A stretch of DNA of 64,000 nt from Patescibacteria group bacterium. Its GTDB lineage: Bacteria > Patescibacteriota > Patescibacteriia > Buchananbacterales > UBA6539. Positions 1,804-57,735 of the stretch are shown piece by piece. Location: assembly GCA_041662625.1 (NCBI GenBank), contig JBAZSB010000001.1:471093-535092 (forward strand), given 5' to 3'. How positions within the stretch are numbered: the stretch's first letter is position 1; each line of letters opens with the position of its first letter. A program made the translations under genes and the position numbers. The notes under the pieces were generated by a model. The model saw nothing but the letters and a program-made list of their open reading frames with translations, had not been told where the DNA came from and did no database searches.

Positions 1804-1804
1804 A

Positions 1805-10115: not shown

Positions 10116-11051
10116 TTATTTAACGCTACTATTAGTACTTGGCTCTATTTCGGCAGCATCTTGTTCTTCTGGTGTCAAAATCTGAATTATTGAAGCTTCT
10201 AATGCATCCCCTTCTTCAGTACTATCTGTCTTAGTTTGATCTGGCTCAACTGGGGTTTCAGCACCATCAATCACACCATTATCTTGATTCGGCTCTTGTT
10301 CTTCAGTCGCCTGATTAGCTTCGGCGACTAACTGCTGAGCGGACAAGCTAGTCTCTTGGGCTGATTGAACGGCTTCAGCTACCATTTGCTCCACCCCCAG
10401 CTTTTCCGCGTCTGATAACCCTTCAACAGTTTTATCAACACTCTTTGCCATCTCTTCAGTCTTGGAACTGACCGTTAGGGCCATCCTTAAAGTTGTTTCT
10501 TTATCTTCAGTAGTGGCGATGTTTTGGTCGGCTTCCTTGATTTTATTCAAATGATCATTGACTGCCACCACATTATTTTTAAATTCTTTAACTACGGCTT
10601 CAATGTTTTTCTTTTTTTGCTGCGGATCAACATTGACTTGGGCGATAATCTTATCAAGTTCAGCCACTCGCTTTTGAGCAAATTCAATTTTTAACTCGAC
10701 TTTGTTTTCATCTCCCGTCACTAAAGCCATGTGAGTCTTTTCTAAGGTTAATTTCAGTGGGTATAAAGTCTCACCGGGCAAACTATAAAAAGCAGCATTA
10801 ATCGTTAAGCTGCTTCCTAAAAATACGCCTAAAACCAAAAGCATAATAAATGCCGGCTCAAACACTAAACGCTGACTTAAAGTTTGAGCTAAAACAGTAA
10901 AGTATCCCTTTAGTCCCACGCCTACTGATTGATATTGGTTTTTTGAATTAATTTGCTGTAATAAAATATCCCGACTCAAAGTTAACCACTCTGATCGGGG
11001 CTGAATCTCTTTTTTTAAACCTTTGATTTCTTGAATGATACTATCTTTCAT
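10116..11051 (-). CDS. Putative anti-sigma factor-like membrane protein (single TM, coiled-coil, acidic C-terminal tail)
   Basis: 311 aa. It overlaps the upstream ECF sigma gene by 11 nt. There is one TM helix (FIMLLVLGVFLGSSLTI) and a coiled-coil periplasmic region. Confidence 0.4.
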   Translation of the reverse strand: MKDSIIQEIKGLKKEIQPRSEWLTLSRDILLQQINSKNQYQSVGVGLKGYFTVLAQTLSQRLVFEPAFIMLLVLGVFLGSSLTINAAFYSLPGETLYPLKLTLEKTHMALVTGDENKVELKIEFAQKRVAELDKIIAQVNVDPQQKKKNIEAVVKEFKNNVVAVNDHLNKIKEADQNIATTEDKETTLRMALTVSSKTEEMAKSVDKTVEGLSDAEKLGVEQMVAEAVQSAQETSLSAQQLVAEANQATEEQEPNQDNGVIDGAETPVEPDQTKTDSTEEGDALEASIIQILTPEEQDAAEIEPSTNSSVK

Positions 11052-11604
11052 TTTTATTTAATAGTTCACGACAAACCTTGATGGCTCGATGAAGTAAAAC
11101 TCTCACCGAACCTTTTGACTTATCTAAGACATTAGCAATCTCACTGATTGAAAGTTCTTCAATGAAACGGAGAATAACGATTTCTCGATACTCATCTTTC
11201 ATCTGTCTGAGAACTTTCTCAATATTTTTCATCTCAAATTCAGTGTCAATCTGAAACAATAAACTTTGCTGGCGATAGTCTTCAACATTCAACAACGATT
11301 CTTGATCTTGAGTAAAATCCTTTCGGGCGCTCTGACGATAAAAATCAATAACTAAATTCCGGGCAGCTTTATAAAGTAAAGCCTTTAAATTTTCAATCTT
11401 CTCGTCTGTCTCGGTAACATACTGCCAAATTTTCAAAAATACTTCCGAAGTCAAGTCTTCGGCATCTTGACGCGTCGCCACCTTAAAATAAATAAATCTG
11501 TAGATGGGCGTTACATACAGATCATAAATTTGGGCAAAAGCCTCGGGATCTTTCTTTTTCAACCTTAATAATAGCAGTTTTTCCTGAAGTTTAGAAGTGG
11601 GCAT
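11041..11604 (-). CDS. RNA polymerase sigma-70 family ECF sigma factor
   Basis: 187 aa. Region 2 (YRFIYFKVATRQDAEDLTSEVFLKIWQ) and region 4 HTH (LSISEIANVLDKSKGSVRVLLHRA) are recognisable. Confidence 0.8.
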   Translation of the reverse strand: MPTSKLQEKLLLLRLKKKDPEAFAQIYDLYVTPIYRFIYFKVATRQDAEDLTSEVFLKIWQYVTETDEKIENLKALLYKAARNLVIDFYRQSARKDFTQDQESLLNVEDYRQQSLLFQIDTEFEMKNIEKVLRQMKDEYREIVILRFIEELSISEIANVLDKSKGSVRVLLHRAIKVCRELLNKNER

Positions 11605-11848
11605 TAAGTATACATTAATTAAGACGTAATAAATAAATAAATGTTACAGCAATAAACTATACTATAACTATTTTCTTGAAGTAAGTCAATGATTATGACC
11701 TAAAACCTGAAGCTTGGACCTTATGGCTCAAAGCTTGTTTTGTAGCTTGAGGTTACAGGTTTCAAGATATTTGACTAATTTTTCTTAATTTATTACTATA
11801 TAAATGGACTAATTGTCCAGACTAATCTAGACAAATAATGCTATTTCT

Positions 11849-12136
11849 ATGCCCAATGTAATTCGGGTCTCGGTCTCAGAAGCCAGCCGGCTTTTTGGGG
11901 TCGAACCAAAAACTGTTAGACGAGCGATCAAGGACCAAAAACTCAAATACATTGTTGTCCAAGGCCGATATAAGATTAATTTTAGCAGCCTCTTGGAATG
12001 GTCACAAGGCAAAATGACCACTAAAAATAAACTGGCTGATCGGGGTATTGGCCAATATGTGGATAAGTGGAAAATTAAAAACAAGCTCTACTCCCCCAAT
12101 CCAGAGCTGGTTGGAGAGAATAAACCCAAAAGATAA
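11849..12136 (+). CDS. Small helix-turn-helix DNA-binding protein
   Basis: 95 aa. SEASRLFGVEPKTVRRAIKDQKL is an HTH-like segment. Its own SD-like site and the terminator follow. Confidence 0.45.
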   Translation: MPNVIRVSVSEASRLFGVEPKTVRRAIKDQKLKYIVVQGRYKINFSSLLEWSQGKMTTKNKLADRGIGQYVDKWKIKNKLYSPNPELVGENKPKR

Positions 12137-12142
12137 AACAAA

Positions 12143-12183
12143 AAAAATCGCCTTTTAGATAAACTCAAGGCGATTTTTTTGTA
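12143..12183. terminator. Bidirectional rho-independent terminator (ATCGCCTT...AAGGCGAT stem flanked by A-run / T-run)
   Basis: The hairpin with flanking poly-A/poly-T serves both the + strand HTH gene and the - strand htrA-like gene. Confidence 0.6.
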
Positions 12184-12202
12184 ATATACTTCTAAACTAA
12201 AA

Positions 12203-13366
12203 TTAGTCAGGCAAAATTACTAGAGTTACTGTTTTAGTTATTGTCTTACCGGCTCTCAATATCTCTAAATCAATCTCATCACCCCCCTGGTACTGTTGAA
12301 TCAATTCCGTTAAGCTACTATTTTTATCAATTTGCTGACCATCAACACTGACAACAATATCGGCTTCTTGGAGGCCGGCATCTGAGGCTGGTGTCCCCTT
12401 CTTTGGACTTTGATAAACTAATGCTCCGCGATTTAATCCCTGAGTTAAATTTTCATTTAAACCAAACACCCAGGCTAAATCAATATAACTAACACCGAGA
12501 AATGGTCGCTTAACTATACTGCTACGCAAAACATCTAAAACGATTGGCCGAAACTGATTGATCGGTACAGCGGTTACCAATTTATCGTCTTGACTGATCT
12601 CTTTAATTATACCAATCACCTCTCCCCCAAGATTAATTAAAGGGCTGCCTAAATAGGTATCATCTAAAACACCGTTTAGCGAAATTGATCGGTTATATTC
12701 TTCCGAAGAAATAACAAAGTTATCGCCTGAAGTAATATTAATGTAATCGGTGTTTTTAATATTAACCACCATCGCCTCACCTAAATTATTCAAAGTAATA
12801 GCCAACTGACCCAAAGTGGCTTCATCAGAGTCCCCCAAGACAACCACCGGTAGATTACTAGCTGAAATTTTTAAAAAAACTACACTGGTAGTGGCATCAA
12901 TTATTAAATTATCAATCGTAAAAGTTTTTCCAGCATAAACCACGACCAGCTGGTCAGGCTTATAATTTTTGAAAATTTCACCAAAACTAACTAGCCAGCC
13001 ATCACTGGTTAAAATAAAACCGTTAGTTTTTAAATCTTGGGGTAAATAAATTTGATTTAAAGCATTGTTACTGGAAGATTTTTTAGAATAAATACCAACC
13101 AATCCCGGAGTAACTTTCTCAATTGATTTATTAACCTCAAAATCTTGCTGAATACCTAAAAATCTTGTAACTCGTCTTAGTTCGGGAATAACTGAAGAAG
13201 CACCGGCATTCGTATTCAAAATATCTACCGTATAACTATCGCGCCAAGGATCAATATAAACATCAGCCACAATCTGACCAACGACACCGGCGGCAAAACC
13301 AAATACCATAGATAAAATTACTACCTGGGAAATAAATTGCTCTTTTTGCTTTTTAAATAATTTCAT
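12203..13366 (-). CDS. HtrA/DegP-like trypsin-fold protease with C-terminal PDZ domain; the catalytic Ser motif is atypical
   Basis: 387 aa with an N-terminal TM helix and a protease core (GEVIGII). The canonical GNSGGPL is replaced by LGSPLINLGG. The PDZ domain (PFLGVSYIDL...GALV) is present. Confidence 0.55.
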   Translation of the reverse strand: MKLFKKQKEQFISQVVILSMVFGFAAGVVGQIVADVYIDPWRDSYTVDILNTNAGASSVIPELRRVTRFLGIQQDFEVNKSIEKVTPGLVGIYSKKSSSNNALNQIYLPQDLKTNGFILTSDGWLVSFGEIFKNYKPDQLVVVYAGKTFTIDNLIIDATTSVVFLKISASNLPVVVLGDSDEATLGQLAITLNNLGEAMVVNIKNTDYINITSGDNFVISSEEYNRSISLNGVLDDTYLGSPLINLGGEVIGIIKEISQDDKLVTAVPINQFRPIVLDVLRSSIVKRPFLGVSYIDLAWVFGLNENLTQGLNRGALVYQSPKKGTPASDAGLQEADIVVSVDGQQIDKNSSLTELIQQYQGGDEIDLEILRAGKTITKTVTLVILPD

Positions 13367-20206: not shown

Positions 20207-20599
20207 ATGTGGTGGAAGCTGTTCATTCGTAGCTGTATCGGATCCTTGATTTTGGCTCTTGTAGCCGGCCTGATCGCCACGCGATTGGGTGATAGCAGCA
20301 GAGCTGGCTTAATTGCCAAGTACGTCTGCTGGCTGGGAATCGGGATCCCAAGTGCCATCTGCATCATAGTGGCTGTACGCCAGTTCATGGTTTCCATGAT
20401 TACTGGGATACACCGCCTGATAAAAGGGCACTCGCAATTCATTGGCGGACTACTGGTCGTCTTTGGTTTCGGCATCGCCGCTGGCCTTGGGGGCGCGGAG
20501 ACTGACTACGACAGTGTTCTGCCAAATATCATCGCCGGCCTTGTCGGACTGGCAATGATGTTCCTCGGGACTAAGCTGTTGCAAAACAGCAAAGTCTAG
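20207..20599 (+). CDS. GC-rich (~52%) small membrane protein, 4 TM, unknown function
   Basis: 130 aa with a strong SD AAAGGAGA 7 nt upstream. Its composition contrasts with the ~35% GC neighbours. Confidence 0.5.
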   Translation: MWWKLFIRSCIGSLILALVAGLIATRLGDSSRAGLIAKYVCWLGIGIPSAICIIVAVRQFMVSMITGIHRLIKGHSQFIGGLLVVFGFGIAAGLGGAETDYDSVLPNIIAGLVGLAMMFLGTKLLQNSKV

Positions 20600-21620: not shown

Positions 21621-21972
21621 CAGCCCGACCAAATTAAATAACTTTAAATCATTTCGCTCAATTAGGCGATTTTTTGTTTTTCCCTGTAACAACTACCAAA
21701 ATCCAACGTCTAAGTTATGCTAAAGGGGAAAACAAACCCCAAAAAACAACTAAATAAAAATACAAAAATAACCCAAAGGCCTTAAAGAAAAATGCTTCTT
21801 GAAAGCTCAGGAGGACCCGCGCCGAGGTTATTAGCTTGTATACCTAATCACCAACTTAAACTTAACACCAAAGCAACAACCCCCAAACCTAGCACATACC
21901 TCGGTAAGCCGAGGTTATTTTTATCTGCCAGTCGATTCACATAACGTAGTTCTTTGAAAGGAGGTGGCAGTC

Positions 21973-22428
21973 ATGAAACCGAACGTAAGTAACGGCCATG
22001 CTGTCTCAGCAATCAAGCGACTGTCTGCCGCGCGTGCTGCCAGAAATATTGTGGGGCTCAACAGCATTTATCTGCTAACTCTAATCGTCACCATTGCCAC
22101 TCTGGCAATGTTCTGGATCGAATTTCTCTTCCCGAAGTATCACGTCGGGCTCACCCGCTCCTTTGTTTACTACAGTCTTCTGACTTTCTATGTAGTCTGC
22201 AAAGAAGCTTACCGGTGGGTCGGCTGGCACGGAGAGAAAAGAGTTGGCGCTGTATGGGTGCTGATCTGGTGGACTTCAACTTTCCTGATGGAAGTAATCA
22301 GCTTCCTGGGTCAGGAGCGGTTCACCCCCCTTGAGGAACAATATCTGGTGACAGTGGCAGTATCAGTCAACTTCTTGCTCTCGCGATTATCGAGATGTCT
22401 CTACGAAAGACGCCTGTCTAGGCGGTAA
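21973..22428 (+). CDS. GC-rich small membrane protein (3-4 TM), unknown function
   Basis: SD AAGGAGGT lies 6 nt before the ATG at 21973. The terminator GGAGAGAGGCTCCCCTCTCTCC + T-run follows at ~22440-22480. Confidence 0.5.
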   Translation: MKPNVSNGHAVSAIKRLSAARAARNIVGLNSIYLLTLIVTIATLAMFWIEFLFPKYHVGLTRSFVYYSLLTFYVVCKEAYRWVGWHGEKRVGAVWVLIWWTSTFLMEVISFLGQERFTPLEEQYLVTVAVSVNFLLSRLSRCLYERRLSRR

Positions 22429-22826: not shown

Positions 22827-23681
22827 TTATCTAAATTCTTTCAAGAGCTCGCTAATCTCCCCCTTTTTAACCTCTTGCTTGGCTAAAGGCAGCTTACTCA
22901 ATTGGGGCAACTGACTTTCATAGGTAGGACAGATGCTTCGATAAATTACACCAATAGGCAGTTTTTCTGTTTCCCCGGCTTTTTGGTAAGCGGAAAATTT
23001 ATCATCTGGCTTATAACCAACATCATCCAGCTTATAAACTTTAGCTTTATATTGCTCGCGGATATCTTTATCGTTGAAGATGACGCAGGGCTGTAAAACA
23101 TCAACCAAAGAAAAGCCCGGATGAGCAATGGCTTTTTTGAAAAGTTCTTTGAGATGAACCACTTCATCAGCATAACCTTGGGCCACAAAAGTTGCCCCAG
23201 CGGTAATGGCCACTTGCATACCGTTTAAAGGATATTCAATCAAGCCATCCGGCGTTGATTTGGTTTTTTCACAATGCTCAGTAGTCGGCGAGGCCTGACC
23301 GGTAGTTAAACTGTAGCGATGATTATTATGAATGATATAAGTGAGATCAACATTGCCCCGGCAAGTATGAACAAAATGATTACCACCTTCACCGTATCCC
23401 CCGCCGTCGCCGGAAATGGCAATGACTTTCAAATCATGGTTCGCCAGTTTAACCGCATAAGCCACCGGTAACGGCCGGCCATGAAGGCTATGAAAACCAT
23501 AAAGCTTATGCCAATTGGCGCCATTGCCGCAACAACCAATATCAAAACTCATTACCACTTGATGCGGCTCTAAATTCAGCTCAGCCAAAGCCTGACGCAG
23601 GGCGGTCCAAATACCAAAATTACCGCAGCCTGGACACCAGGTCGGCTTAACTTGAGTCATAAAATCAATATCTTTGGCCAT
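22827..23681 (-). CDS. 2-oxoacid:ferredoxin oxidoreductase beta subunit (TPP-binding)
   Basis: 284 aa. WCPGCGNFGI and GDGG TPP-binding motifs. Confidence 0.8.
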   Translation of the reverse strand: MAKDIDFMTQVKPTWCPGCGNFGIWTALRQALAELNLEPHQVVMSFDIGCCGNGANWHKLYGFHSLHGRPLPVAYAVKLANHDLKVIAISGDGGGYGEGGNHFVHTCRGNVDLTYIIHNNHRYSLTTGQASPTTEHCEKTKSTPDGLIEYPLNGMQVAITAGATFVAQGYADEVVHLKELFKKAIAHPGFSLVDVLQPCVIFNDKDIREQYKAKVYKLDDVGYKPDDKFSAYQKAGETEKLPIGVIYRSICPTYESQLPQLSKLPLAKQEVKKGEISELLKEFR

Positions 23682-23787
23682 ACTTTATCAATTTTTAATT
23701 TTGAATTTCTAATTTTGAATAAATTTCTAATAATTCAATATTCTAATATTCAAAATTGATTAAAAATTTAAAATTAAAAATTCGAAA

Positions 23788-25548
23788 TTATTTCAAGTTT
23801 TTAATCAGCTCGACCACTTCTTCCGGGAAAAACTGGGCGCCATTATATTTATTTAGTCTTTGGTCAACTTTGATCCCAGCCACTTCCTGCAAAATGTTGG
23901 CGAGCTGGCCATCATAATTATTTTCAATACAAACTAACTTCTTTACGCCTTTCAAAGCCTTCTGCAGTTTTTCTACACCAAGCGGCCACGGTGCGACCAA
24001 GTGCAAATAATTGACATCAGCCAAAACTTTCAACGCTTCCAAAACCGGACCTTTAACCGAACCCCAGCCGATCAAAGTCAGTTTGGCTGATTTGGGACCA
24101 AATAATTCCGGGGCCGGCAAATCTTTTAAAACACCGCCAAGCTTGGCCGAACGCTTTTCCACCATTTGATTACGAATCTGCGGGGTAAAGCCTTCAATCG
24201 TAAAACCAAGCTCATCATGCTCGTCACTGTTGGCCAAGTAAACTCCGCCTTTTTGGCCGGGAATTGAACGGGGTGAAACCCCGGACTTAGTGACTAAATA
24301 GCGTTTAAATTCAGCCATCTTATTCAGTTGCTCATCAGTTAATAACTGCCCGCGGTCAATTTCAACCTTGGCTAAATCCGGTGGCAGAATTGATTGGTGA
24401 CCTTCGGAAATATATTTATCCAGCAGAATAAAAACGGGAATCTGCCATTTTTCAGCAATATTAAAGGCTTGGGTAGTTAAATAAAAAGCTTCAATCGGAT
24501 CGCCCGGAGCCAGAATTACCCGGACGAACTCGCCATGGCCGGCATGAGCTAAATAGGCTAAATCACCTTGTTCTGTCCAGGTGGGCAGGCCGGTGGCCGG
24601 ACCGGGCCGTTGTGATTCAAAAATAACTACTGGTGTTTCCGTTATCCCGGCTAAAGCCAAAGCCTCAGTCATTAAAGCAAACCCGCCGCCGGAAGTGGCA
24701 GTTGCCGCTCTGACTCCGGCAAAGTTGGCACCAATTGCCATATGGATGGCCGAAATCTCGTCTTCGGGGTGTTTGACTACCATGCCGGTCTTTTGCTGCC
24801 AAGCCGCCAGGTTATGCAAAATTGATGAAGCTGGTGTCATCGGATAAGAGGCAAAAAATTTACAATCCGCTGCAACCGCACCCAGACAGGCCGTGTCATT
24901 GGAAGTAACAATAATGGAATCTTTATTTTTGCCTACTGCCTTAAGTTTATAAGGAAATTTCTCCGCTTCCAAATTAGCTTTGGCGTAATCATAGCCAAAT
25001 TTGGCCGCCGTAATATTCATGGCTACTACTTCCTCACCCTTACCGGCAAAAGCATCTTTAATTACTTCATTTAAAATTTCTAAGTTAAAATCCAGTAAAG
25101 CCGCACTGGCGCCGGTAATAATGATATTAGCCGCAATTGGCTTAATTTGGGCTTGGCTGGCTAATTTTTCCAAAGGCAACGGGTAAACCTTGACGCCTTT
25201 GGTTTCCCCGGGCTTAATTTCAAATTTATCGCTATCATATAAAATCACGCCATCAGACATCATATCGGGCAGACAATAATCAAAGGCCTCACGGTTTAAG
25301 GCAATTAAGAGCTGGGTTTTTTGGTAAATCGCCATTACCGGCTCCTGACCAACGCTAACCCGATAGGTTACTAAACCGCCGCGGATCCGGGAAGGATATT
25401 CTGAGCTGTCAAAAGTAAAAAGGCCGCCGCGAACACAGGCCTTAGTAAAAATCAGGCCAGCTATTTGCTGTCCCCCGCCGGCAATACCGCCGATTTTCCA
25501 GGTAAAAATATTGTTGTTACTATCTTTCATGCTTTTATATTTTAGCAC
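23788..25548 (-). CDS. 2-oxoacid:ferredoxin oxidoreductase alpha subunit with fused N-terminal gamma domain
   Basis: 586 aa. The gamma-like N-terminal domain (KIGGIAGGGQQIAGLIFTKA) is followed by an alpha-subunit pyrimidine-binding domain. Confidence 0.8.
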   Translation of the reverse strand: MLKYKSMKDSNNNIFTWKIGGIAGGGQQIAGLIFTKACVRGGLFTFDSSEYPSRIRGGLVTYRVSVGQEPVMAIYQKTQLLIALNREAFDYCLPDMMSDGVILYDSDKFEIKPGETKGVKVYPLPLEKLASQAQIKPIAANIIITGASAALLDFNLEILNEVIKDAFAGKGEEVVAMNITAAKFGYDYAKANLEAEKFPYKLKAVGKNKDSIIVTSNDTACLGAVAADCKFFASYPMTPASSILHNLAAWQQKTGMVVKHPEDEISAIHMAIGANFAGVRAATATSGGGFALMTEALALAGITETPVVIFESQRPGPATGLPTWTEQGDLAYLAHAGHGEFVRVILAPGDPIEAFYLTTQAFNIAEKWQIPVFILLDKYISEGHQSILPPDLAKVEIDRGQLLTDEQLNKMAEFKRYLVTKSGVSPRSIPGQKGGVYLANSDEHDELGFTIEGFTPQIRNQMVEKRSAKLGGVLKDLPAPELFGPKSAKLTLIGWGSVKGPVLEALKVLADVNYLHLVAPWPLGVEKLQKALKGVKKLVCIENNYDGQLANILQEVAGIKVDQRLNKYNGAQFFPEEVVELIKNLK

Positions 25549-28550: not shown

Positions 28551-29036
28551 CTAGCCGCCCCGCCGCTTGGCCGCCTTCTCCTGCATCGTTTTGATCTGAC
28601 CTTCAAGTAAGGCCAAAGGAACATTGGTGTCGGCGGCTAACTTCTCCGCCAAAATCTTGCGGCGCCGAGCCTCCCAAATCACTGCTCCCTGGAGCAAATC
28701 AAAGGGTGGCTTGCCTTCGTCCGCCCGTTCTTGATTGATAGGGGCCAAAACAATTATAGCTTCGATCATATCAGCGGCGCTAAACGCAAAGTCATAGCCT
28801 TGCGCTAAAAGACCCTGCATGACCAACAGCAGCCGGTCATGAAACCGGCCAGGAACAATGGCGGTACCCAGGACCTGCTCGGCCAATTTGACTCTTAGGG
28901 GGTCAACCCCAAGGTATAACCGCCAATAGTCAGCCGCGCTAAGACCGGCCTTCCTTCTTTTCGTTTCTTCAGTTGATGCAGCGGGTTGAGCGGCGCCCGG
29001 CACACCTTTATCTCTTCGAGACCAAGGCCAATTCAT
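28551..29036 (-). CDS. GC-rich (~58%) hypothetical protein
   Basis: 161 aa. Strong SD GGAGGAAAG 7 nt upstream. The composition is foreign to its surroundings. Confidence 0.45.
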   Translation of the reverse strand: MNWPWSRRDKGVPGAAQPAASTEETKRRKAGLSAADYWRLYLGVDPLRVKLAEQVLGTAIVPGRFHDRLLLVMQGLLAQGYDFAFSAADMIEAIIVLAPINQERADEGKPPFDLLQGAVIWEARRRKILAEKLAADTNVPLALLEGQIKTMQEKAAKRRGG

Positions 29037-41213: not shown

Positions 41214-41774
41214 ATGAGAAATCTGAGCGTAGTAATCGCCCTAGTCGCTGTCTTGTTGATCAGCACTGCCGCCCACGCGGCCCAGCAGGTCACCATTGAC
41301 CTCGACAAGCTGACTCCGGAAGCGGCGGCCGAACTGATGAAGCTCAAGAAGGCGGCGGAAAACCCGGAACCGGAGATGCCAACGGCGGAACAGTTGGAAA
41401 ACTACGTCGACCTCGGGGCAAAGATTGGCCAAGCCATCGCAGCCACGTGCAAAGAGCTGTCCGTAGAGGTCAACGAGTTCGTCAGAACGCCGGTTGGGAT
41501 GATCACCATGGGGTTGATCATCTGGAAGGTGGCAGGCACCGAAATCTGGGGTATCGTTGGCGGCACATCCGTCTGGGTAGTTATCACTCTTATTCTCATG
41601 TGGTCTTTCCACTACTTCCACATGAGCAAAAAGGTGAAAGGTAAAGAAGGCGACGAATGGGTCCGACGATATGAATTCAGCGACTGGACATATGAAGCCT
41701 GGTCGGCTGGCATCCACCTGGTATGTTGGGCGGCGATCACTATCACCTGCCTCGTCATCGTCTTCTACCACTAG
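41214..41774 (+). CDS. GC-rich (~60%) secreted/membrane protein, unknown function; inserted between scpA-associated genes and scpB
   Basis: 186 aa with a signal peptide and 3 TM helices. SD AAGGAGGAAC. Upstream TTGACT-17-TAATAT promoter. Composition is foreign to its surroundings. Confidence 0.5.
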   Translation: MRNLSVVIALVAVLLISTAAHAAQQVTIDLDKLTPEAAAELMKLKKAAENPEPEMPTAEQLENYVDLGAKIGQAIAATCKELSVEVNEFVRTPVGMITMGLIIWKVAGTEIWGIVGGTSVWVVITLILMWSFHYFHMSKKVKGKEGDEWVRRYEFSDWTYEAWSAGIHLVCWAAITITCLVIVFYH

Positions 41775-45882: not shown

Positions 45883-46185
45883 GTGGTAACGTTACAAAAA
45901 GTGTCAATGTATCGCTTGGTGATTGTGGACGGAATGCCAGTAATTGTTCCGGACCAAATCAATGACGCTCTTGATGCGGGGGCCACTGTCAAAGGGTTGG
46001 TCAAAATTGTTCCGGACCAAACCAATGACGCTCTTGATGCGGGGGCCACTGTCCAAGAGTTGGCCAAAGCCGAGCCCTGCCCGCACTGCCAGCGGGGCAC
46101 CAGCTTTCTCGTTCTCCTCCAAGGAGACGAAACGAGCCGCTCTGAGCATCGCTACTGCCTGAACTGTGGCGAAAAGACTGAATAA
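45883..46185 (+). CDS. GC-rich small protein with internal 21-aa tandem duplication and C-terminal CxxC...CxxC zinc ribbon; GTG start
   Basis: SD AAAGGAGA. 63-bp direct repeat encoding IVPDQ(I/T)NDALDAGATV(K/Q). CPHCQRG...CLNCGEK. Confidence 0.45.
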   Translation: MVTLQKVSMYRLVIVDGMPVIVPDQINDALDAGATVKGLVKIVPDQTNDALDAGATVQELAKAEPCPHCQRGTSFLVLLQGDETSRSEHRYCLNCGEKTE

Positions 46186-49391: not shown

Positions 49392-50822
49392 TTAGTCAGC
49401 CATAGCTGTATCAAAGCCTTCCTCGGCTTCAACGCCTTTGGCTAAATCAATGTTAGCTTCCTTTAAGGCTTTCTTACTGGCTGGACTGGGTGCACCCATC
49501 ATCAAATCGCGGCTGTCGCCAGTTTTGGGAAAAACTATGACTTCGCGAATATTGGGTTCATTTTGTAAAATCGCCATAATCCGATCAATGCCCGGCGCAA
49601 TCCCGCCATGCGGCGGCGCCCCGTAAGTAAAAGCTTCCAGCATATGGCCAAACCTAGCCTGGATTTCTTTTTCCCCGACTCCTAAAAGTTCAAAAACTTT
49701 TTGCTGGACTTCCCGCAGATGAATCCTGATTGAGCCGCCGGCAATTTCAAAACCGTTTAAGACTAAATCATAACCATAGGCCCGCCATTTTCTTGGCTCA
49801 TCCGGGTATTTTTTCATATCTTCCAAGTTTGGCATGGTAAAAGGATGATGACTGGCGACTAATTTCTTTTCAGTTTCGGAATATTTAAACATGGGCGGAT
49901 CAATCAGCCACATGAAAGCCACTTCATTGGAATCTTCTTTGTTAGTTCTCAAGTCAGGCTTATCGGTTTTGTATTTTTTCAAACATTCAGCATGGGTCAG
50001 GCGCGGGAACGGTTTAGCCGTGATTTTCTTTTCCGGATACAAAGTTTCAACCAGCTTAATCATCATCGGTTCCATTAACGAAAATATATCTTCTTGATCA
50101 ACAAAACTCATTTCTAAGTCCAGCTGAGTAAATTCCGCCTGGCGGTCACCGCGGGTATCTTCATCACGAAAGCAGCGGGCAATCTGAAAATATTTTTCCG
50201 CACCGCCAACCATCAGTAATTGCTTAAATTGCTGGGGTGACTGGGGCAAGACATAAAATTGGCCTGGCCAAAGCCGGGCAGGCACTAAAAATTCTCTGGC
50301 CCCTTCCGGCGTGCCTTTGGTTAAAATTGGCGTTTCCACTTCCAAGAAACCCTGCTGATCCAAATAATCACGGATAAATTTGACCACCCGATGGCGCATG
50401 ATCATGTTATTTTTCATCCGTTCCGACCGCAAATCCAAATAGCGGTATTTCAACCGAATTTCCTCGCTGACTTGGCTGGTATCTTTATCTAATTCAAAAG
50501 GTGGAGTTTTTGCCTCATTTAGAATTTCCAATTCCTCCCCTCTCATCTCTACGGTGCCAGTGGCAATCTTTTCATTGACCATATTTTTGGGCCTTTGGTT
50601 GATTGTCCCTTTAATTCTGACTACAAATTCCGACCGCAAGCTATTGGCTAATTTATGAGCCCCTGCAAAAGTCGGCTCAAAAACCACCTGCAAAATGCCG
50701 CTGCGGTCCCGCAGGTCAATAAAAATAATTTTGCCATGATCGCGCCGGGTATGGACCCAACCTCTGACTTCAACCTTCTGCCCAACTTGATTTACTACCT
50801 CTGCGATTGCTGTTCTTGCCAT
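49392..50822 (-). CDS. aspS: Aspartate--tRNA ligase (compact form without a recognisable GAD insertion)
   Basis: N-terminal OB fold. LPQSPQQFKQLLMVGG..FQIARCFRDEDTRGDRQAEFTQLD (class II motif 2, AspRS-type QSPQ signature). Motif 3 GGIAPGIDR. Confidence 0.75.
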   Translation of the reverse strand: MARTAIAEVVNQVGQKVEVRGWVHTRRDHGKIIFIDLRDRSGILQVVFEPTFAGAHKLANSLRSEFVVRIKGTINQRPKNMVNEKIATGTVEMRGEELEILNEAKTPPFELDKDTSQVSEEIRLKYRYLDLRSERMKNNMIMRHRVVKFIRDYLDQQGFLEVETPILTKGTPEGAREFLVPARLWPGQFYVLPQSPQQFKQLLMVGGAEKYFQIARCFRDEDTRGDRQAEFTQLDLEMSFVDQEDIFSLMEPMMIKLVETLYPEKKITAKPFPRLTHAECLKKYKTDKPDLRTNKEDSNEVAFMWLIDPPMFKYSETEKKLVASHHPFTMPNLEDMKKYPDEPRKWRAYGYDLVLNGFEIAGGSIRIHLREVQQKVFELLGVGEKEIQARFGHMLEAFTYGAPPHGGIAPGIDRIMAILQNEPNIREVIVFPKTGDSRDLMMGAPSPASKKALKEANIDLAKGVEAEEGFDTAMAD

Positions 50823-51032
50823 AAAAATAATAAAAAATAGGATGAATTAGTACTTATATCATATAATTTTTTGCGATTTCTGGCAACCCTGATACCAAAC
50901 CATTTGGTCTAAAAAGACTTGACAAAAAAAGAAATATAAGTTAGGATAAAAATCTGAACCTTTTTGAGTTGTGTCTTTGTATTTTGTTTTTGCCGGAGAG
51001 GCTAACTGTAATCGGAAAGGAGGTGATTCCGA

Positions 51033-51272
51033 ATGAGTATAACAGTAGCCATACAGTGTAAGGGTGGGGTGGCCCAGTTGATTCGAGCTGCTCTGCAGCA
51101 GCGTTCACCCCTGAGGGTGACCAAAGACCAACTCGAGCAACTCGCCAAAGTGGGCGGAGCCCACATAACCGAAAGGAAGGAGGGACAGCACGATGTTCGA
51201 GTGGTTTCGATACCAGGAGAGGAAGACCAACGCTTGGAATTCCTCGCCCCTGCCGACAGACTCGGCACATGA
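51033..51272 (+). CDS. GC-rich small hypothetical protein
   Basis: 79 aa. SD GGAAAGGAGGTG. Terminator GGCCCAGG...CCTGGGCC + T-run at ~51290-51335. Confidence 0.35.
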   Translation: MSITVAIQCKGGVAQLIRAALQQRSPLRVTKDQLEQLAKVGGAHITERKEGQHDVRVVSIPGEEDQRLEFLAPADRLGT

Positions 51273-51403
51273 ACATATTCACCCTCCACCAGATGGCCCA
51301 GGACAACGATCATATCGCCTGGGCCTCATTTTTTTTAAAAAAAAATCGCCTCGCCTTGGAAAACTTCCCAAGAGCGAGGCGGTGAAAACATCATACGATA
51401 ACC

Positions 51404-52672
51404 TCAGGCGATTGCCGGCTCCCATTCCGGATCAATACCCATGAAGGCTTTCGTATCTTGGTAGAGCGCACGGCCTACCGTGTCAATGTCGACTTCGTTC
51501 AATGGTGTACCTGCGGCCAACTTGGCCCACACAGTAATAGGGTAAAACCGCACAACATTGGTACCCATTACTGCGACCTCAGTCAACATATCCCCACTGT
51601 TACCGGGGACAAAGACGTCGCAGATGTTGTCGGTGCCGATACGAATCGGAATTCGCCACTTGATTAACTCCAGCAGGCGTGCTACCGAATTGTGCATCGG
51701 CGCCGTAATCGGCCGTAACCGGCGCATCGAAATCGCCGCTGTCGGACAGATGATCACACCGATATTGAGGCGCTTAAGGTCCTTCAGCAGTTGCCGAAAC
51801 TTCTCTTCCGTGTAGGACGACGGGCTGATCATGTGAACGACCCAGATCTTCGGTTTTCCGGAGGCAAACCAATCGATCGCTTTCTGTTCCATGCCGTCTA
51901 TCACGCGGATTAGTCGGATCGTCCCTTCTTCGCTTGGATCATCCGCCTGATCCAGATGGAGATGCACTTCTTTGCGCAACCGGTAGGCAAGCTCCAGAAT
52001 CCGCCGGATGTGCTGTTCAAATCCGATCTTACCGTCTCGGCTACCTCGCACCGAGATATCGAAGTCATCCTTCTCCGGTAAAGCAGTAATGAAATCGGAG
52101 TCCTTGGCCGCTTTGAGATAGGTTTCCCAGCGACCGCTCCCCTGTTTGAAACCGAAGATTGGACTCGGTCCGATCTGCAGATCAATTTGACCTGCGAATT
52201 CAGCCTTAAGCTCGCGCAGAATTCGCCAGGCCAAAAGACCACCTTCGGCAATACCAGGGCACACGTCGCAGCAGGTGCTTAAACGTGTTGTCCCAAAAGC
52301 AATACAACGCCGAAGCACGCGACTTACCCGCTCGCGCAGGTCCTTCTCAGTGTAAGCTGGACCCCGGTGAATGTAACCGACCAGGTTCTGCTTCACGGTC
52401 AGCGGCATAATCGCTGCATCCAACGGATTCAAGCTGATCTGACTCAGATACATCGGGTCAAGCGTATCAGCCCGATCTAGATGAGCATGCCAATTGCTGA
52501 ACCCGCCCAAAGCCTCGACTTGTTCCAAGAGCTGCCGCGAATACGGATCTAGGATCCGATTTGGCAACACGACTGTTCCCTTCTCTGACCGTACTCCTCG
52601 TGCTCCTCTTGCCTTTTTTACACTCTTCACCATGATTTCCTCTCCTTCAATGTTGCTGCCGGGTTTCTTCAC
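51404..52672 (-). CDS. codA: Cytosine deaminase-like metal-dependent amidohydrolase
   Basis: NWHAHLD metal-binding motif. GQIDLQIGPSPIFGF, VHLHLDQADD and GTDNICDVFVPGNSGDML align with the conserved CodA blocks (HIHLD, WIDLQIVAFPQEG, VHCDEIDD, GHDDVFDPWYPLGTANML). Local GC is ~55%. Confidence 0.6.
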   Translation of the reverse strand: MKKPGSNIEGEEIMVKSVKKARGARGVRSEKGTVVLPNRILDPYSRQLLEQVEALGGFSNWHAHLDRADTLDPMYLSQISLNPLDAAIMPLTVKQNLVGYIHRGPAYTEKDLRERVSRVLRRCIAFGTTRLSTCCDVCPGIAEGGLLAWRILRELKAEFAGQIDLQIGPSPIFGFKQGSGRWETYLKAAKDSDFITALPEKDDFDISVRGSRDGKIGFEQHIRRILELAYRLRKEVHLHLDQADDPSEEGTIRLIRVIDGMEQKAIDWFASGKPKIWVVHMISPSSYTEEKFRQLLKDLKRLNIGVIICPTAAISMRRLRPITAPMHNSVARLLELIKWRIPIRIGTDNICDVFVPGNSGDMLTEVAVMGTNVVRFYPITVWAKLAAGTPLNEVDIDTVGRALYQDTKAFMGIDPEWEPAIA

Positions 52673-52755
52673 TACGACACTGCCACTGCTGTCTTTCCAT
52701 CCTCTCCCAAAAAACTCCTTTCCTCACTACATTTACCATAGACTTCCGCTCCTTC

Positions 52756-53697
52756 TCAATGTTGCTGTTGCTGCCGGGTTTCTTTACTACGACGCCACTC
52801 TTCGAAACTGGAGAAACCGTGTCTCTCCAGCCATTCGCTGATGCCCAAAATGATGCGGGGCATCGCCGAAGCCGGATGGCCGAAGTTGGCTGTGCCAACT
52901 GCCACAGCTTGGGCACCTGCCCAAAAGAACTTCATTGCATCCGCCGCCTCAGTAATGCCACCCATCCCGATGACCGGAATTCTGATGTCAGGGCAATGAC
53001 AGACCTGCCAAACACAACGTAGAGCTACGCGTAGAATTCCAGGACCTGAGACGCCGCCGGTGATGTTAGCCAAAACCGGCTGACCAGTTTCCGGATTGAT
53101 GTCCATGCCCAAAAGCGTGTTGATCAGGGATAAGACATCAGCTCCACCTGCTTGTGCTGCCTTGGCAATAGCCACGATGTCAGTGACGTTGGGCGTCAGT
53201 TTGGCAATCAATGGCACCTTAGCCCGCGACCTGATAGCCGAAACTAACTCATAGGTCAGTTTAGGATCTTGGCCAAACGACATGCCCATCTTCACGTTGG
53301 GGCACGAAATGTTAGCCTCGATCATATCAATGCCCGAACCGTCCAGTCTTGCCGTCAGTTCGACGTATTCCTCAACTGTCGTACCCGAGATATTGACAAC
53401 CACGCGCCGGCCCAAGGCTTTGATTGGCAGCAGCTTACGTGCCAAAAAGTCCTCAATCCCATCTCCGGCCAAACCAATGGCATTCAGTATCACGCCACGG
53501 TTGGTGTCATACAGTCTGGGTGTCGGATTACCGGGAACTGGCTTCAGCTTGACAGTCTTGCTGACGATTGCGCCAGGTTTTGGGTCTTCCAAGAGCTGCT
53601 CGCCCTCTTCGTCCCAAGTGCCGGACGCATTCATGACCGGGTTACCAAGAAGTACACCGGCCAGAGTAGTGCTCAGATCAACTTTACGTGAGTTCAT
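52756..53697 (-). CDS. pyrD: Dihydroorotate dehydrogenase catalytic subunit (class 1B)
   Basis: NASGT, NISCPN (active-site Cys) and the GGI..A motif. It overlaps pyrK by 14 nt. Confidence 0.8.
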   Translation of the reverse strand: MNSRKVDLSTTLAGVLLGNPVMNASGTWDEEGEQLLEDPKPGAIVSKTVKLKPVPGNPTPRLYDTNRGVILNAIGLAGDGIEDFLARKLLPIKALGRRVVVNISGTTVEEYVELTARLDGSGIDMIEANISCPNVKMGMSFGQDPKLTYELVSAIRSRAKVPLIAKLTPNVTDIVAIAKAAQAGGADVLSLINTLLGMDINPETGQPVLANITGGVSGPGILRVALRCVWQVCHCPDIRIPVIGMGGITEAADAMKFFWAGAQAVAVGTANFGHPASAMPRIILGISEWLERHGFSSFEEWRRSKETRQQQQH

Positions 53698-54484
53698 ACC
53701 AGTTTACCTCCTCTGCCGGAAATACCGGGCCGTCTTTGCAGACGTATTTTGGGAAACCACTTAGCATCGGTACAGCGCACGACTTGCAGGCGTAAATCCC
53801 GCCGCAACCCATCACTTGCTCGATGAACGCCAAACAGCTTACTCCGGCTTCTTGGGCTAAGAGAGCCACCTGCTTCATCATTGGCTTGGGGCCACAAGTG
53901 ATGATCTGGACTTTGTCCGACGACGGCAAACCGTCTCTGCTAAGAATCTCTCGCAGGAGATCGACTGCCGTCTTGCTGTCCTCGGCTTGGGTGACATAGT
54001 TAAAGGTCGCACCGATTCTTTCGAAATCAGCTTGACCAAAAACCTGAGCCCGATTCCGAAAACCACAACCGACAATCACACGCGCAGAAGTCTGCTCATT
54101 GATCTCCCTGGCCGGGAAATGCATCGAGGCCAAACCGCAGCCGCCAGCGATCATCAGAAAACACTCAATCGCTGGATCGATGATTATGCCCTGGCCAATT
54201 GGGCCAAGGATTTCCACATCTTGGCCAGCTTTCCAGCCAGCGTACGCCCGGGTGTTAGGTCCAGCATCCTGAATCACCAGATCAATAACATCATCTCTTC
54301 GTGAGTAGACGGTGAACGGCCGACGGCAGTTCGCCGAAGGTATTCCGGGTTCGATTGTGACAAACTGCCCAGGCTTAACCCTGGCAGCAATTCTCGGACA
54401 ACACAGAGCAGCCTTTACAATCCCTTGGGCTATCTGGGTGACCGATGACACAACCGCCATATCAACTACCTTACTTGCGCTCAT
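53684..54484 (-). CDS. pyrK: Dihydroorotate dehydrogenase electron-transfer subunit (FAD/NAD-binding, 2Fe-2S)
   Basis: RPFTV FAD motif. C-terminal CGGIYACKSC cluster-binding Cys triad plus a fourth Cys. Confidence 0.75.
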   Translation of the reverse strand: MSASKVVDMAVVSSVTQIAQGIVKAALCCPRIAARVKPGQFVTIEPGIPSANCRRPFTVYSRRDDVIDLVIQDAGPNTRAYAGWKAGQDVEILGPIGQGIIIDPAIECFLMIAGGCGLASMHFPAREINEQTSARVIVGCGFRNRAQVFGQADFERIGATFNYVTQAEDSKTAVDLLREILSRDGLPSSDKVQIITCGPKPMMKQVALLAQEAGVSCLAFIEQVMGCGGIYACKSCAVPMLSGFPKYVCKDGPVFPAEEVNWYELT

Positions 54485-54783
54485 TCTATCTCCTCCCTAC
54501 CTCGGTTGAAAATGCCTAAATTGACACAAAAAAAATAGGGCTTCCCCCTATTCCCTAATGGATTGTCAAGGTACTTGACAACCCCCTCCCCAGAATAGTA
54601 TCAGAATCAAGTTGTTTAGTCAAGATCATTATTTTTAGCTATTTCTTAATAATCTAAAGATAAAATACCCAAATTAGTGCTTACAAAAAATGCGGCTTTA
54701 AAGCCGCCGCCTGACGGCTGGAAACCGTCTTTGGGTGTTAAACAACACCTTTTTATCTATCCTAAGGTAAATTAATCTGCATG

Positions 54784-55344
54784 TCAAATCTTCATTTTAA
54801 CTAAAAATTTCTCCGTTTGTAATTCCGCCTCTAACTGATTTTTTAAAAACTGATTTAATTTCTTTGGGTCAGCAGCTATACTGGCATTTGGAGCCAGCCC
54901 TAAAAGTGACAATAATTTAATGATAAAAGCCTGCTTAACCACTCGCCATTCCTTGTCTTTAAATAAATTATCATTGACTACAGATAAATACTTTGCCAAC
55001 AAATTAAAAATATTGCTGTCCGGCTGATCAGTTTCAGTCAATTTATCAACCAGCTCTAAGGCAAAGCTTCCTAAAACAATTTTTTTTAAATCCATACCAA
55101 GGCGGGGAAAATTTGTGACTAAAACTGCTCCGGCAATATGGCTATAGTTTTTTCCCGGCGCAATCATTAAATCAATCAGGCCAAACATTTTCAAACTACT
55201 GTTAAGCTTGCTTTGGATTTTTTTTGTCCCCCGACCCAAAGCTATAACCTTGCCATAGTTTTGGGTGTAGATACTAAAAAGCTGATCAGCTTCAGCGTGA
55301 TCAGTCTTTTTGAGGATTAGGCCAATGGTTTGGTAGGTGGACAT
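54784..55344 (-). CDS. recO: DNA repair protein RecO (short form)
   Basis: The N-terminal OB-fold pattern MSTYQTIGLILKKTDHAEADQLFSIYTQNYGKVIALGRG matches RecO. At 186 aa it is shorter than typical. Confidence 0.55.
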   Translation of the reverse strand: MSTYQTIGLILKKTDHAEADQLFSIYTQNYGKVIALGRGTKKIQSKLNSSLKMFGLIDLMIAPGKNYSHIAGAVLVTNFPRLGMDLKKIVLGSFALELVDKLTETDQPDSNIFNLLAKYLSVVNDNLFKDKEWRVVKQAFIIKLLSLLGLAPNASIAADPKKLNQFLKNQLEAELQTEKFLVKMKI

Positions 55345-57498: not shown

Positions 57499-57735
57499 TT
57501 ACTTAATCAGCATCAACAAATTCTCCTCATCAAATTCGGAAATTTCACCTTTCTCTCTTAACTCCCCAACTACTTTTTTTATCTCTTCTGCACTCACTCC
57601 CCCATCAATTAGCTCTTTAACTAACGCACCATAGACATTCGGCTGTTCCCGATAATCTAAGCTTTTGATTTGATATAAAGCATCTTTAATCTGCTGTCTG
57701 TTTTTGAAAACTTTTTTGGCAGAAAATAAAGCCAT
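57499..57735 (-). CDS. Small hypothetical protein between secY and adk
   Basis: 78-aa ORF. The usual infA/rpmJ genes are not present in this position. Confidence 0.35.
   Translation of the reverse strand: MALFSAKKVFKNRQQIKDALYQIKSLDYREQPNVYGALVKELIDGGVSAEEIKKVVGELREKGEISEFDEENLLMLIK

Follow-up and report, generated by a model that had tools for sequence, protein, structure and literature searches.

We analysed a 64-kb stretch of a Patescibacteria genome (hereafter called the window) and characterized a GC-rich block located between the recO and aspS genes. It harbours three genes on the minus strand, pyrK, pyrD and a gene coding for an orphan metallo-amidohydrolase, as listed in a preliminary description of this DNA. 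Sequence signatures identify PyrK and PyrD as a predicted class 1B, NAD-linked flavin/Fe-S dihydroorotate dehydrogenase (DHODH), which would interconvert dihydroorotate and orotate. We propose, with slightly less than even confidence, that the amidohydrolase may be a dihydroorotase (DHOase) analogous but not orthologous to the canonical enzyme, PyrC. In our best explanation, the three genes would form an operon equipped with a promoter, a leader resembling an attenuator and a terminator of its own. This operon would occupy an old slot in the genome of a Buchananbacteria-like Patescibacterium, located between recO and aspS and variable in a lineage-specific manner, with a conserved small gene in convergent orientation next to it. 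Taken as a whole, with operon, DHOase and old slot together, we consider this explanation evenly poised.

De novo nucleotide synthesis is lacking in 93% of Patescibacteria genomes (bioRxiv 10.64898/2026.06.21.733656), which bears out the earlier statement that genomes of this type usually lack the pathway. The view of Patescibacteria as unable to make nucleotides depends on annotations made with the enzyme families known so far. If our proposal is correct, the 'hypothetical protein' family PRK06886 and its relatives would gain a function, the amidohydrolase superfamily would comprise a second, independent DHOase route evolved from a deaminase scaffold, and some ultra-small bacteria would be able to turn carbamoyl-aspartate or dihydroorotate that they scavenge into orotate and then UMP. 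New here are the DHOase hypothesis for an orphan family probably derived from CodA, the attenuator-like leader conserved upstream of pyrK and the pyrimidine slot with its variable content. Our literature search found no publication on DHODH in Patescibacteria, no paper mentioning PRK06886 and nothing on a CodA-like dihydroorotase.

The PyrK and PyrD subunits

The catalytic subunit is encoded by pyrD (52756-53697, minus strand, 313 residues). The protein passes the curated cut-offs of NF005574 (328.8 bits for a cut-off of 269) and TIGR01037 (296.4 bits for 270), matches Pfam DHO_dh with an E-value of 2.3e-65 and keeps the catalytic Cys in an NISCPN motif starting at residue 129, in agreement with its initial assignment to class 1B. 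The motif is likewise found in the homologues of loci L009, L007 and L095 (L numbers denote our comparison loci). The preceding gene, pyrK (53684-54484, minus strand, 266 residues), codes for a PyrK-like electron-transfer subunit with FAD/NAD-binding domains and a C-terminal 2Fe-2S domain. The latter matches DHODB_Fe-S_bind (PF10418; 34.2 bits for a cut-off of 23.9, residues 222-260), a four-Cys pattern, C-x5-C-x2-C...C, can be read in the C-terminal part of the translation, and a match to NAD_binding_1 was also obtained. The presence of the 2Fe-2S domain upholds the identification of PyrK. It is a divergent member, since its best NCBIfam equivalog scores are 115.2 and 100.1 bits, where 220 and 219 are required.

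Known enzymes of this class are of the PyrDB-PyrK type found in Lactococcus, Bacillus and Clostridia (NF005574, TIGR01037, PRK00054). The window pair resembles them in the order of the genes, with pyrK preceding pyrD and translationally coupled to it, as well as in the cut-offs passed, the catalytic Cys and the 2Fe-2S domain. It differs from them by the divergence of PyrK, by its Patescibacterium host and by genes ~14 GC points above the genome. The 14-nt overlap between the pyrK stop and the pyrD start noted earlier was recovered (53684-53697), and it is identical in L007.

The third gene codes for an orphan amidohydrolase

The third gene of the block (51404-52633, minus strand) codes for a metallo-amidohydrolase of 409 residues related to CodA/AtzC and to PRK06886. 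Its start differs between records, yielding proteins of 422 residues in IMG, 409 in ENA/Logan and 374 in NCBI (MFA6254910.1). The best start is the ATG at 52633, which is preceded by the ribosome-binding site (RBS) GAAGGAG and fits the family alignment, rather than the GTG at 52672, and the NCBI start drops a conserved N-terminal LxPYD segment. The sequence blocks NWHAHLD, QIDLQIG and GTDNICDVF, pointed out previously, are present in the translation. No Pfam family matched the protein at E<=0.01. Its best curated match is NF005365 (PRK06886.1, an equivalog named 'hypothetical protein'; 5.8e-42, residues 45-387), with 143.9 bits for a cut-off of 340. As this is the best-scoring family and a distant, domain-fused relative in locus L092 (see below) passes its cut-off (347.7 bits), the window protein can be assigned to the wider family covered by this model. 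The Patescibacteria clade forms a separate subfamily, and the model carries no functional name.

The amidohydrolase family comprises 359 representatives at 50% clustering among 1.84 billion proteins. It is essentially metagenomic and counts no characterised member. Most sequences come from Patescibacteria and some from archaeal metagenome-assembled genomes (MAGs), the source names given being Patescibacteria, Pacebacteria, 'archaeon', Nitrososphaera and Nanoarchaeota. Among PDB structures, the family profile matched only CodA (4e-28) and AtzC (3e-20). An AlphaFold2 (AF2) model of the window protein was obtained with a predicted local distance difference test score of 86.7 and a predicted template-modelling (TM) score of 0.87, and a Foldseek search with this model gave a TM score of ~0.62 to CodA/AtzC at 16-22% identity. 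These nearest solved relatives, i.e. CodA/5-methylcytosine deaminase (1K6W, 4R7W) and AtzC (2QT3, 4CQB), share with it the (beta/alpha)8 barrel and the aligned metal ligands. Unlike them, the model has no N/C-terminal beta-sandwich domain; it consists of eight barrel strands only, with residues 1-22 disordered and a helical C-terminus.

We aligned 30 close members of the family (alignment A1) and 22 diverse members with identities down to 27% (alignment A2). H49, H51, K81, Q229, H267, D335 and N336 are invariant across these alignments. H49, H51, H226, D335 and H267 align with H61, H63, H214, D313 and H246 of CodA, respectively, and the metal ligands (H49, H51, H226 and D335) vary little or not at all. 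The Glu residue of the HxxE motif is essential in deaminases such as CodA and ADA, and to our knowledge all deaminases of the amidohydrolase superfamily use it. In the present family, the motif is replaced by H226-L-D-Q229, and the Gln residue, which takes the place of CodA Glu217, is invariant in both alignments. In addition, the position of CodA Gln156 is occupied by hydrophobic residues and that of Asp314 by Asn, and position 188 is always Lys or Arg. As acidic pocket residues have become amides, with an invariant K81 and a basic residue at position 188, we infer that the pocket was re-tuned for an anionic substrate.

The preliminary description had called this gene codA-like and its product a cytosine deaminase-like amidohydrolase. 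The scores against the CodA NCBIfam models, 49.9, 43.0 and 40.1 bits, are to be compared with cut-offs of 403, 438 and 483, respectively, and together with the invariant Gln and the lack of a beta-sandwich domain in the AF2 model they argue that the third gene most probably does not encode a cytosine deaminase. The family may have derived from a CodA/AtzC scaffold, in which the metal site (HxH, H, H, D) would have been kept and the proton-shuttle Glu replaced with Gln.

Gene neighbourhoods suggest a dihydroorotase function

In the window, pyrK, pyrD and the amidohydrolase gene follow one another on one strand. Other arrangements are found in a GC-richer clade of the family, where a divergent class-1-like DHODH gene is located immediately upstream of the amidohydrolase gene (L039, L060) or immediately downstream of it (L033, L043). 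Some members with only 27-30% identity harbour an N-terminal MGS-like domain, namely P0374 (L091, 8001-9443) and P0305 (L092/L093, 6001-7455), and this domain is also present on P0312, P0321 and P0329. Its closest counterpart is the allosteric domain at the CarB C-terminus (positions 941-1045 of 1058). The MGS-fused genes of L091 and L092/L093 are convergent with a DHODH gene and lie between ftsH and recG, and with 320 bits for a cut-off of 267, the L091 DHODH is a genuine member of class 2. Finally, in L094, a 930-kb contig, a family member with 30-32% identity is divergently adjacent to the genes pyrF, pyrE-like and pyrD. The invariant residues described above are retained in the pyr-linked and MGS-fused members too. 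We found no canonical pyrC gene in any of the pyr-linked neighbourhoods of the family (window, L033, L039, L043, L060, L091, L092/L093 and L094).

Because these pyr neighbourhoods are devoid of canonical pyrC, and because the DHOase reaction is the amidohydrolase-superfamily step that connects to PyrD, we propose that the amidohydrolase would interconvert carbamoyl-aspartate and dihydroorotate, feeding PyrD. Like the canonical PyrC proteins of types I-III, the family has an HxH...H...H...D barrel of the amidohydrolase superfamily and is linked to pyrD, pyrE and pyrF. The location of the MGS-like, CarB-allosteric-type domain N-terminal to the hydrolase in some members also resembles the organization of CAD, in which carbamoyl-phosphate synthetase precedes DHOase. 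Unlike canonical PyrC, the family has no detectable DHOase sequence membership and no conserved Lys residue at the end of beta4. A broader reading is possible, although we hold it to be doubtful: PRK06886-related amidohydrolases, derived from CodA, would represent a new, non-orthologous class of DHOases taking the place of the 'missing pyrC' in reduced genomes, including those of Patescibacteria and some archaeal MAGs, standard annotation would under-call late pyrimidine synthesis in these organisms, and the recO-aspS interval would be a recombination hot spot exchanging pyrimidine genes within the clade, kept GC-rich for instance by GC-biased gene conversion.

Regulatory signals of the three-gene unit

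A consensus scan identified, as a pattern match only, a sigma-70-like promoter upstream of pyrK (54595-54623, minus strand; TTGACT-17-TACTAT with TG), whose sequence is conserved in L009. The leader that follows this promoter-like site is 110 nt long and contains two hairpins (54528-54584, minus strand; fold of -37.4 kcal/mol, z -3.4). Hairpin 1 (54560-54584) is made of the inverted repeat I1, GGGUUGUCAAG-UAC-CUUGACAAUCC. Hairpin 2 with its U8 tract (54528-54556) resembles an intrinsic terminator, ~45 nt before the start codon. The leader is nearly identical in L009 (about 9040-9150). In L095 (about 6120-6200), whose PyrK is only 39% identical, the two-hairpin layout is kept with a different terminator stem. 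The conserved elements, from three examples in all, are thus a GGUUGUC...GACAAYC hairpin and then a terminator with a U-run, and the hairpin motif is unique within the window.

This leader looks like an attenuator, as found in many pyr operons, and from its sequence it might be a candidate new pyr attenuator. Like the UTP-sensitive and PyrR-type leaders of bacterial pyr operons, it has a promoter-proximal hairpin followed by a U8 terminator upstream of the first pyr gene; unlike them, it has no PyrR match in Rfam and no evident leader peptide. As the leader matched no Rfam family, the PyrR element included, we rejected the presence of such an element.

The three-gene unit ends with an intrinsic terminator (51337-51381, minus strand; hairpin of -26.5 kcal/mol, z -5.3, then U9). 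It lies back to back with the terminator of the small convergent gene (51292-51336, plus strand; hairpin of -19.4 kcal/mol, z -4.5, then U8), so that the two terminators reported at this place are both strong hairpins with U-runs.

The junction between pyrD and the amidohydrolase gene harbours a direct duplication (52630-52793, minus strand), composed of a 28-nt repeat with 96% identity at a spacing of 115, plus flanking similarity. The 3' end of pyrD (about 52738-52793) duplicates the 5' untranslated region, RBS and start of the amidohydrolase gene (about 52630-52678). A 30-codon open reading frame (ORF; 52647-52739) is enclosed by the repeats, and the spacer between pyrD and the amidohydrolase ATG measures 122 nt. 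This duplication looks like a recombination scar. In L009, from which the amidohydrolase gene is gone, one copy is retained downstream of pyrD (10900-10990), suggesting that the ancestor of L009 also carried the amidohydrolase gene at this location.

History of the recO-aspS slot

The GC-rich block (50968-54520, 3553 nt) has a GC content of 52.9%, compared with 39.0% for the remainder of the window. The excess is present at all three codon positions, with GC values at third positions (GC3) of 0.56-0.60 for the block genes and 0.37-0.46 for their neighbours. The GC-rich island previously described is therefore present, with a measured GC content below the ~55% announced, and its former start, 50941, corresponds to where a spurious ORF ends, which shadows the small convergent gene on the minus strand. 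The block is bordered by recO (54784-55344) on one side and by aspS (49392-50822) on the other. The window carries a typical Patescibacteria core, made of a ribosomal-protein operon, secY, a 78-aa ORF, adk, map, ruvX, recO and, past the block, aspS. The arrangement of the block is identical in three independent assemblies, a 20-kb ENA contig, a 7.6-kb Logan contig and a 922-kb (922,082 bp) NCBI/JGI contig of a MAG that encodes MFA6254910.1 and MFA6254911.1, which together with synteny in relatives excludes an assembly chimera. Among the relatives with a name, Candidatus Buchananbacteria (L006; P0124) comes nearest.

In L003 (Patescibacteria, 272-kb contig) and L006, the gene order is secY-adk-map-ruvX-recO, then the amidohydrolase gene and a small convergent ORF, then aspS. 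The flanking proteins are 59-85% identical to those of the window and the amidohydrolase is 59% identical. In a neighbour-joining (NJ) tree of 80 homologues, the amidohydrolases of the window, L003 and L006 form one clade. The L003 and L006 genes have GC contents of 57% and 56.6%, vs about 42%, and GC3 values of up to 0.71. Comparison of the window with L003 at 4-fold sites indicated that these are at or near saturation, with identities of 0.30 for SecY and 0.40 for the amidohydrolase, for a random value of 0.28. Because synonymous sites are saturated, the shared GC-richness does not denote a recent import that has yet to ameliorate, and the amidohydrolase gene and the small convergent gene are shown to be old residents of the recO-aspS slot. 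The 'foreign composition' of the block thus holds as far as GC and GC3 are atypical, and fails as a sign of recent import.

Regarding pyrK-pyrD, a lateral origin is plausible, as an old event only. The pair has few close relatives (86, 74 and 67% identity), beyond which identity drops to ~50% with the class 1B PyrD proteins of Clostridia, and in L007 it is found at another locus. The only three named near matches of PyrD are from Clostridiales, Enterocloster and Cuneatibacter, most near matches being nameless. In an NJ tree, which is not decisive, PyrD and its close relatives branch beside the Clostridia-type class 1B sequences, as their sister clade, and not within them. The proposal of a horizontally acquired module can therefore be kept for pyrK-pyrD, with this restriction on its age, and has to be given up for the amidohydrolase and small convergent genes, which are syntenic in L003 and L006. 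As to the donor lineage that phylogenies were expected to reveal, the NJ trees name none, as the amidohydrolase groups with L003/L006 and PyrD branches as described.

The content of the slot varies among relatives. L009 is a very close relative, with AspRS and SecY proteins 93% and 95% identical to those of the window. Its slot contains pyrK-pyrD and then a gene for an aberrant, aspartate transcarbamoylase (ATCase)-like protein of 607 residues (11092-12915), and no amidohydrolase gene. The slot of L095 contains pyrK, pyrD, whose product is only 41% identical, and the ATCase-like gene (8001-9821), and that of L096 the ATCase-like gene alone (1288-3195). The ATCase-like proteins, of 594-635 residues, have an OTCace_N domain in which the STRTR motif has become STGTE and HPTQ is kept, followed by a Cys-rich C-terminal extension of ~230 residues without a Pfam match. 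Only five such proteins were found in a collection of 5.8 billion, and none of these five is encoded on the 922-kb contig of the window. We infer from these comparisons that pyrK-pyrD and the leader may have been added upstream of the amidohydrolase gene in a sub-lineage, and that in the closest relative the amidohydrolase gene would later have been swapped for the aberrant ATCase-like gene.

In every genome of this comparison, the cargo genes are GC-richer than the flanks, and the cargo proteins evolve faster: between the window and L009, PyrK is 68% identical vs 95% for SecY. Although its protein identity is lower than that of the flanks, PyrD has a 4-fold identity to L009 of 0.72 vs 0.59 for the flanks, which hints at an exchange at a later time or at another mutational regime. 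More generally, in 68 metagenomic loci with adequate flanks, the amidohydrolase gene exceeds its flanks by 6.3 GC points on average, and by up to 19. In 16 of 54 loci, its GC3 exceeds that of the adjacent genes by more than two standard deviations. These loci all belong to the Patescibacteria clade or border on it, and the excess is absent from more distant homologues. Example loci among L010-L089 are L052/L053, L034, L016 and L022, with values of up to 57% vs 38%.

GC-richness is a long-maintained property of the slot cargo and of Patescibacteria amidohydrolases, and not the mark of a recent acquisition. The existence of GC-richer relatives, the 4-fold excess of PyrD and the fast evolution of the cargo would all be consistent with GC-biased gene conversion acting on a recombination hot spot. 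The 14-point GC excess found here is stable and as old as the lineage, so that gene transfers in these genomes are mis-dated when judged by compositional 'foreignness' alone.

Alternative explanations

Several observations weigh against our explanation. The DHOase call is drawn from gene neighbourhoods and from one Rosetta-stone domain fusion, and no DHOase model or structure was among the matches of the amidohydrolase in Pfam, NCBIfam, Foldseek or PDB profile searches. In DHOases of types II and III and in most of type I, a carboxylated Lys residue at the end of strand 4 bridges a binuclear Zn site. The basic residue at the end of beta4 in the present family, K188, is K/R-variable, and we therefore rejected K188 as a carbamylated ligand of such a site. 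The type I DHOase of Aquifex is reported to have a mononuclear site (PMC3880350), which would be conceivable here as well. In the Patescibacteria clade with >50% identity, the loci with enough flank have mostly housekeeping neighbours (prmC in 22 loci, rplU, rmuC), a synteny that gave no functional hint, and no pyr gene within 6 kb. As most carriers are without pyr neighbours and the pathway is mostly lacking in Patescibacteria, a DHOase would have no obvious partner there. In the 64-kb window, we found none of the pyrB, pyrC, pyrE, pyrF and carAB genes. Concerning the age of the slot, our trees are all NJ trees. L095 is a GC-richer relative with the same synteny (GC3 of 0.55-0.63 in the flanks), so that recurrent allele replacement from relatives of this kind is possible and could mimic vertical persistence.

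We consider it unlikely that the amidohydrolase serves in salvage, as a deaminase or hydrolase of a free base, nucleoside or nucleotide, e.g. cytosine or a modified pyrimidine, from scavenged RNA or DNA, and that its adjacency to pyrD reflects only a shared 'pyrimidine' regulon or chance at a hot spot. In favour of this reading, the solved structures closest to the protein are those of cytosine/5-methylcytosine deaminases and AtzC, most Patescibacteria members have no pyr neighbour, these organisms live on salvaged nucleotides, and the many invariant Arg and Lys residues might bind phosphate. However, an invariant Gln replaces the HxxE Glu that deaminases require, members only 27-60% identical are adjacent to DHODH genes in at least five arrangements, and the family is found fused to a CarB-type allosteric domain. 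The fusion similarly disfavours catabolic orotate fermentation, to which we assign the lowest probability of the alternatives considered. In that scheme, PyrK/PyrD would reduce orotate with NADH, the amidohydrolase would open dihydroorotate, and an ATCase-like enzyme would phosphorolyse carbamoyl-aspartate to carbamoyl phosphate, with ATP formed by carbamate kinase. Several points would suit such a pathway: the first description of a class 1B DHODH was that of an NADH-dependent orotate reductase from Clostridium oroticum, both reactions are reversible, the slot holds either the amidohydrolase gene or that of the aberrant ATCase-like protein, and neither pyrE nor pyrF was seen near the window cluster. 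Yet the CarB-domain fusion and the attenuator leader with its U-tract are typical of biosynthetic pyr control, and L094 links the family to biosynthetic pyrE-like and pyrF genes. Furthermore, the ATCase-like protein has STGTE in lieu of the carbamoyl-phosphate motif STRTR, and no carbamate kinase was seen.

A hypothesis along the lines of the preliminary description, namely that the whole 3.5-kb block is a recent foreign island brought from a GC-rich donor with pyrK, pyrD and a cytosine deaminase gene, appears quite improbable, and for the amidohydrolase and the small convergent gene it is already largely refuted. It would account for the sharp GC step of ~14 points and the GC3 values of 0.56-0.60, for a pyrD with only 3-4 close relatives before the ~50% identity to Clostridia-type class 1B sequences, and for the different locus of pyrK-pyrD in L007, and the 4-fold identity of PyrD to L009 (0.72, above the 0.59 of the flanks) hints at a later exchange between close relatives. 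Against it, the amidohydrolase gene and the small ORF are syntenic and equally GC-rich in L003/L006 despite saturated sites, the amidohydrolases are monophyletic and belong to an overwhelmingly Patescibacteria family with some archaeal MAGs, and the deaminase Glu is missing. In addition, pyrK-pyrD is already in the recO-aspS slot of L009 and L095, the Clostridia-type sequences form a sister group to the PyrD clade and do not enclose it, and mobile-element borders were rejected: no integrase or other mobility gene was called at the block, no tRNA gene was found in or beside it, and there are no att-like flanking direct repeats, the sole direct repeat being the internal duplication at the pyrD-amidohydrolase junction.

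The small convergent gene

The fourth gene of the block (51033-51272, plus strand) codes for a protein of 79 residues; it is GC-rich, convergent with the amidohydrolase gene and divergent from aspS. The strong Shine-Dalgarno sequence attributed to it is present as AGGAGG, 8 nt upstream of the ATG. A promoter-like site, TTGACA-17-TAGGAT (50919-50947, plus strand), was found in the consensus scan, again as a pattern match only. Positional homologues of 83-109 residues occur in L003, L006, L009 and L095. The four aligned sequences (window, L003, L006 and L009) share 23-35% identity, and conservation is highest at codon position 2, followed by positions 1 and 3. These positional homologues and this order of conservation establish the ORF as a real gene. 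Its product matches no Pfam or NCBIfam family. Two minus-strand ORFs of 121 and 103 codons were rejected as shadows of this gene. A structured RNA as the cause of the high GC content of 50968-51400 was likewise rejected: the search of this stretch yielded no match in Rfam (gathering, E<=1) or with ARAGORN, and the stretch corresponds to the 79-aa gene and the terminators.

Other features of the window

Additional small GC-rich ORFs are found elsewhere in the window, at 20207-20599 (plus strand), 21964-22428 (plus), 28551-29036 (minus), 41214-41774 (plus) and 45883-46185 (plus). They have GC contents of 50-55% and GC3 values of up to 0.72, and several are membrane proteins as predicted by eye. 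A Pfam scan of two of them, 28551-29036 and 41214-41774, gave no match. The occurrence of such ORFs without family assignment indicates that base composition is mosaic in this genome outside the block as well.

The 78-aa ORF located between secY and adk (57499-57735, minus strand) belongs to no Pfam family and is kept in L003, with 73% identity; ORFs of similar size are found at the matching position in L009 and L095. Downstream of a sigma-70/DUF5667 pair, a large ORF of 1246 codons (6101-9841, minus strand, 43% GC) has no Pfam hit on record. Lastly, two genes code for a 2-oxoacid:ferredoxin oxidoreductase (22827-25548, minus strand), composed of a POR gamma/alpha fusion and a beta subunit. 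This enzyme is among the few redox enzymes of the window, and it could be a source or sink of reducing equivalents relevant to the NAD-linked DHODH.

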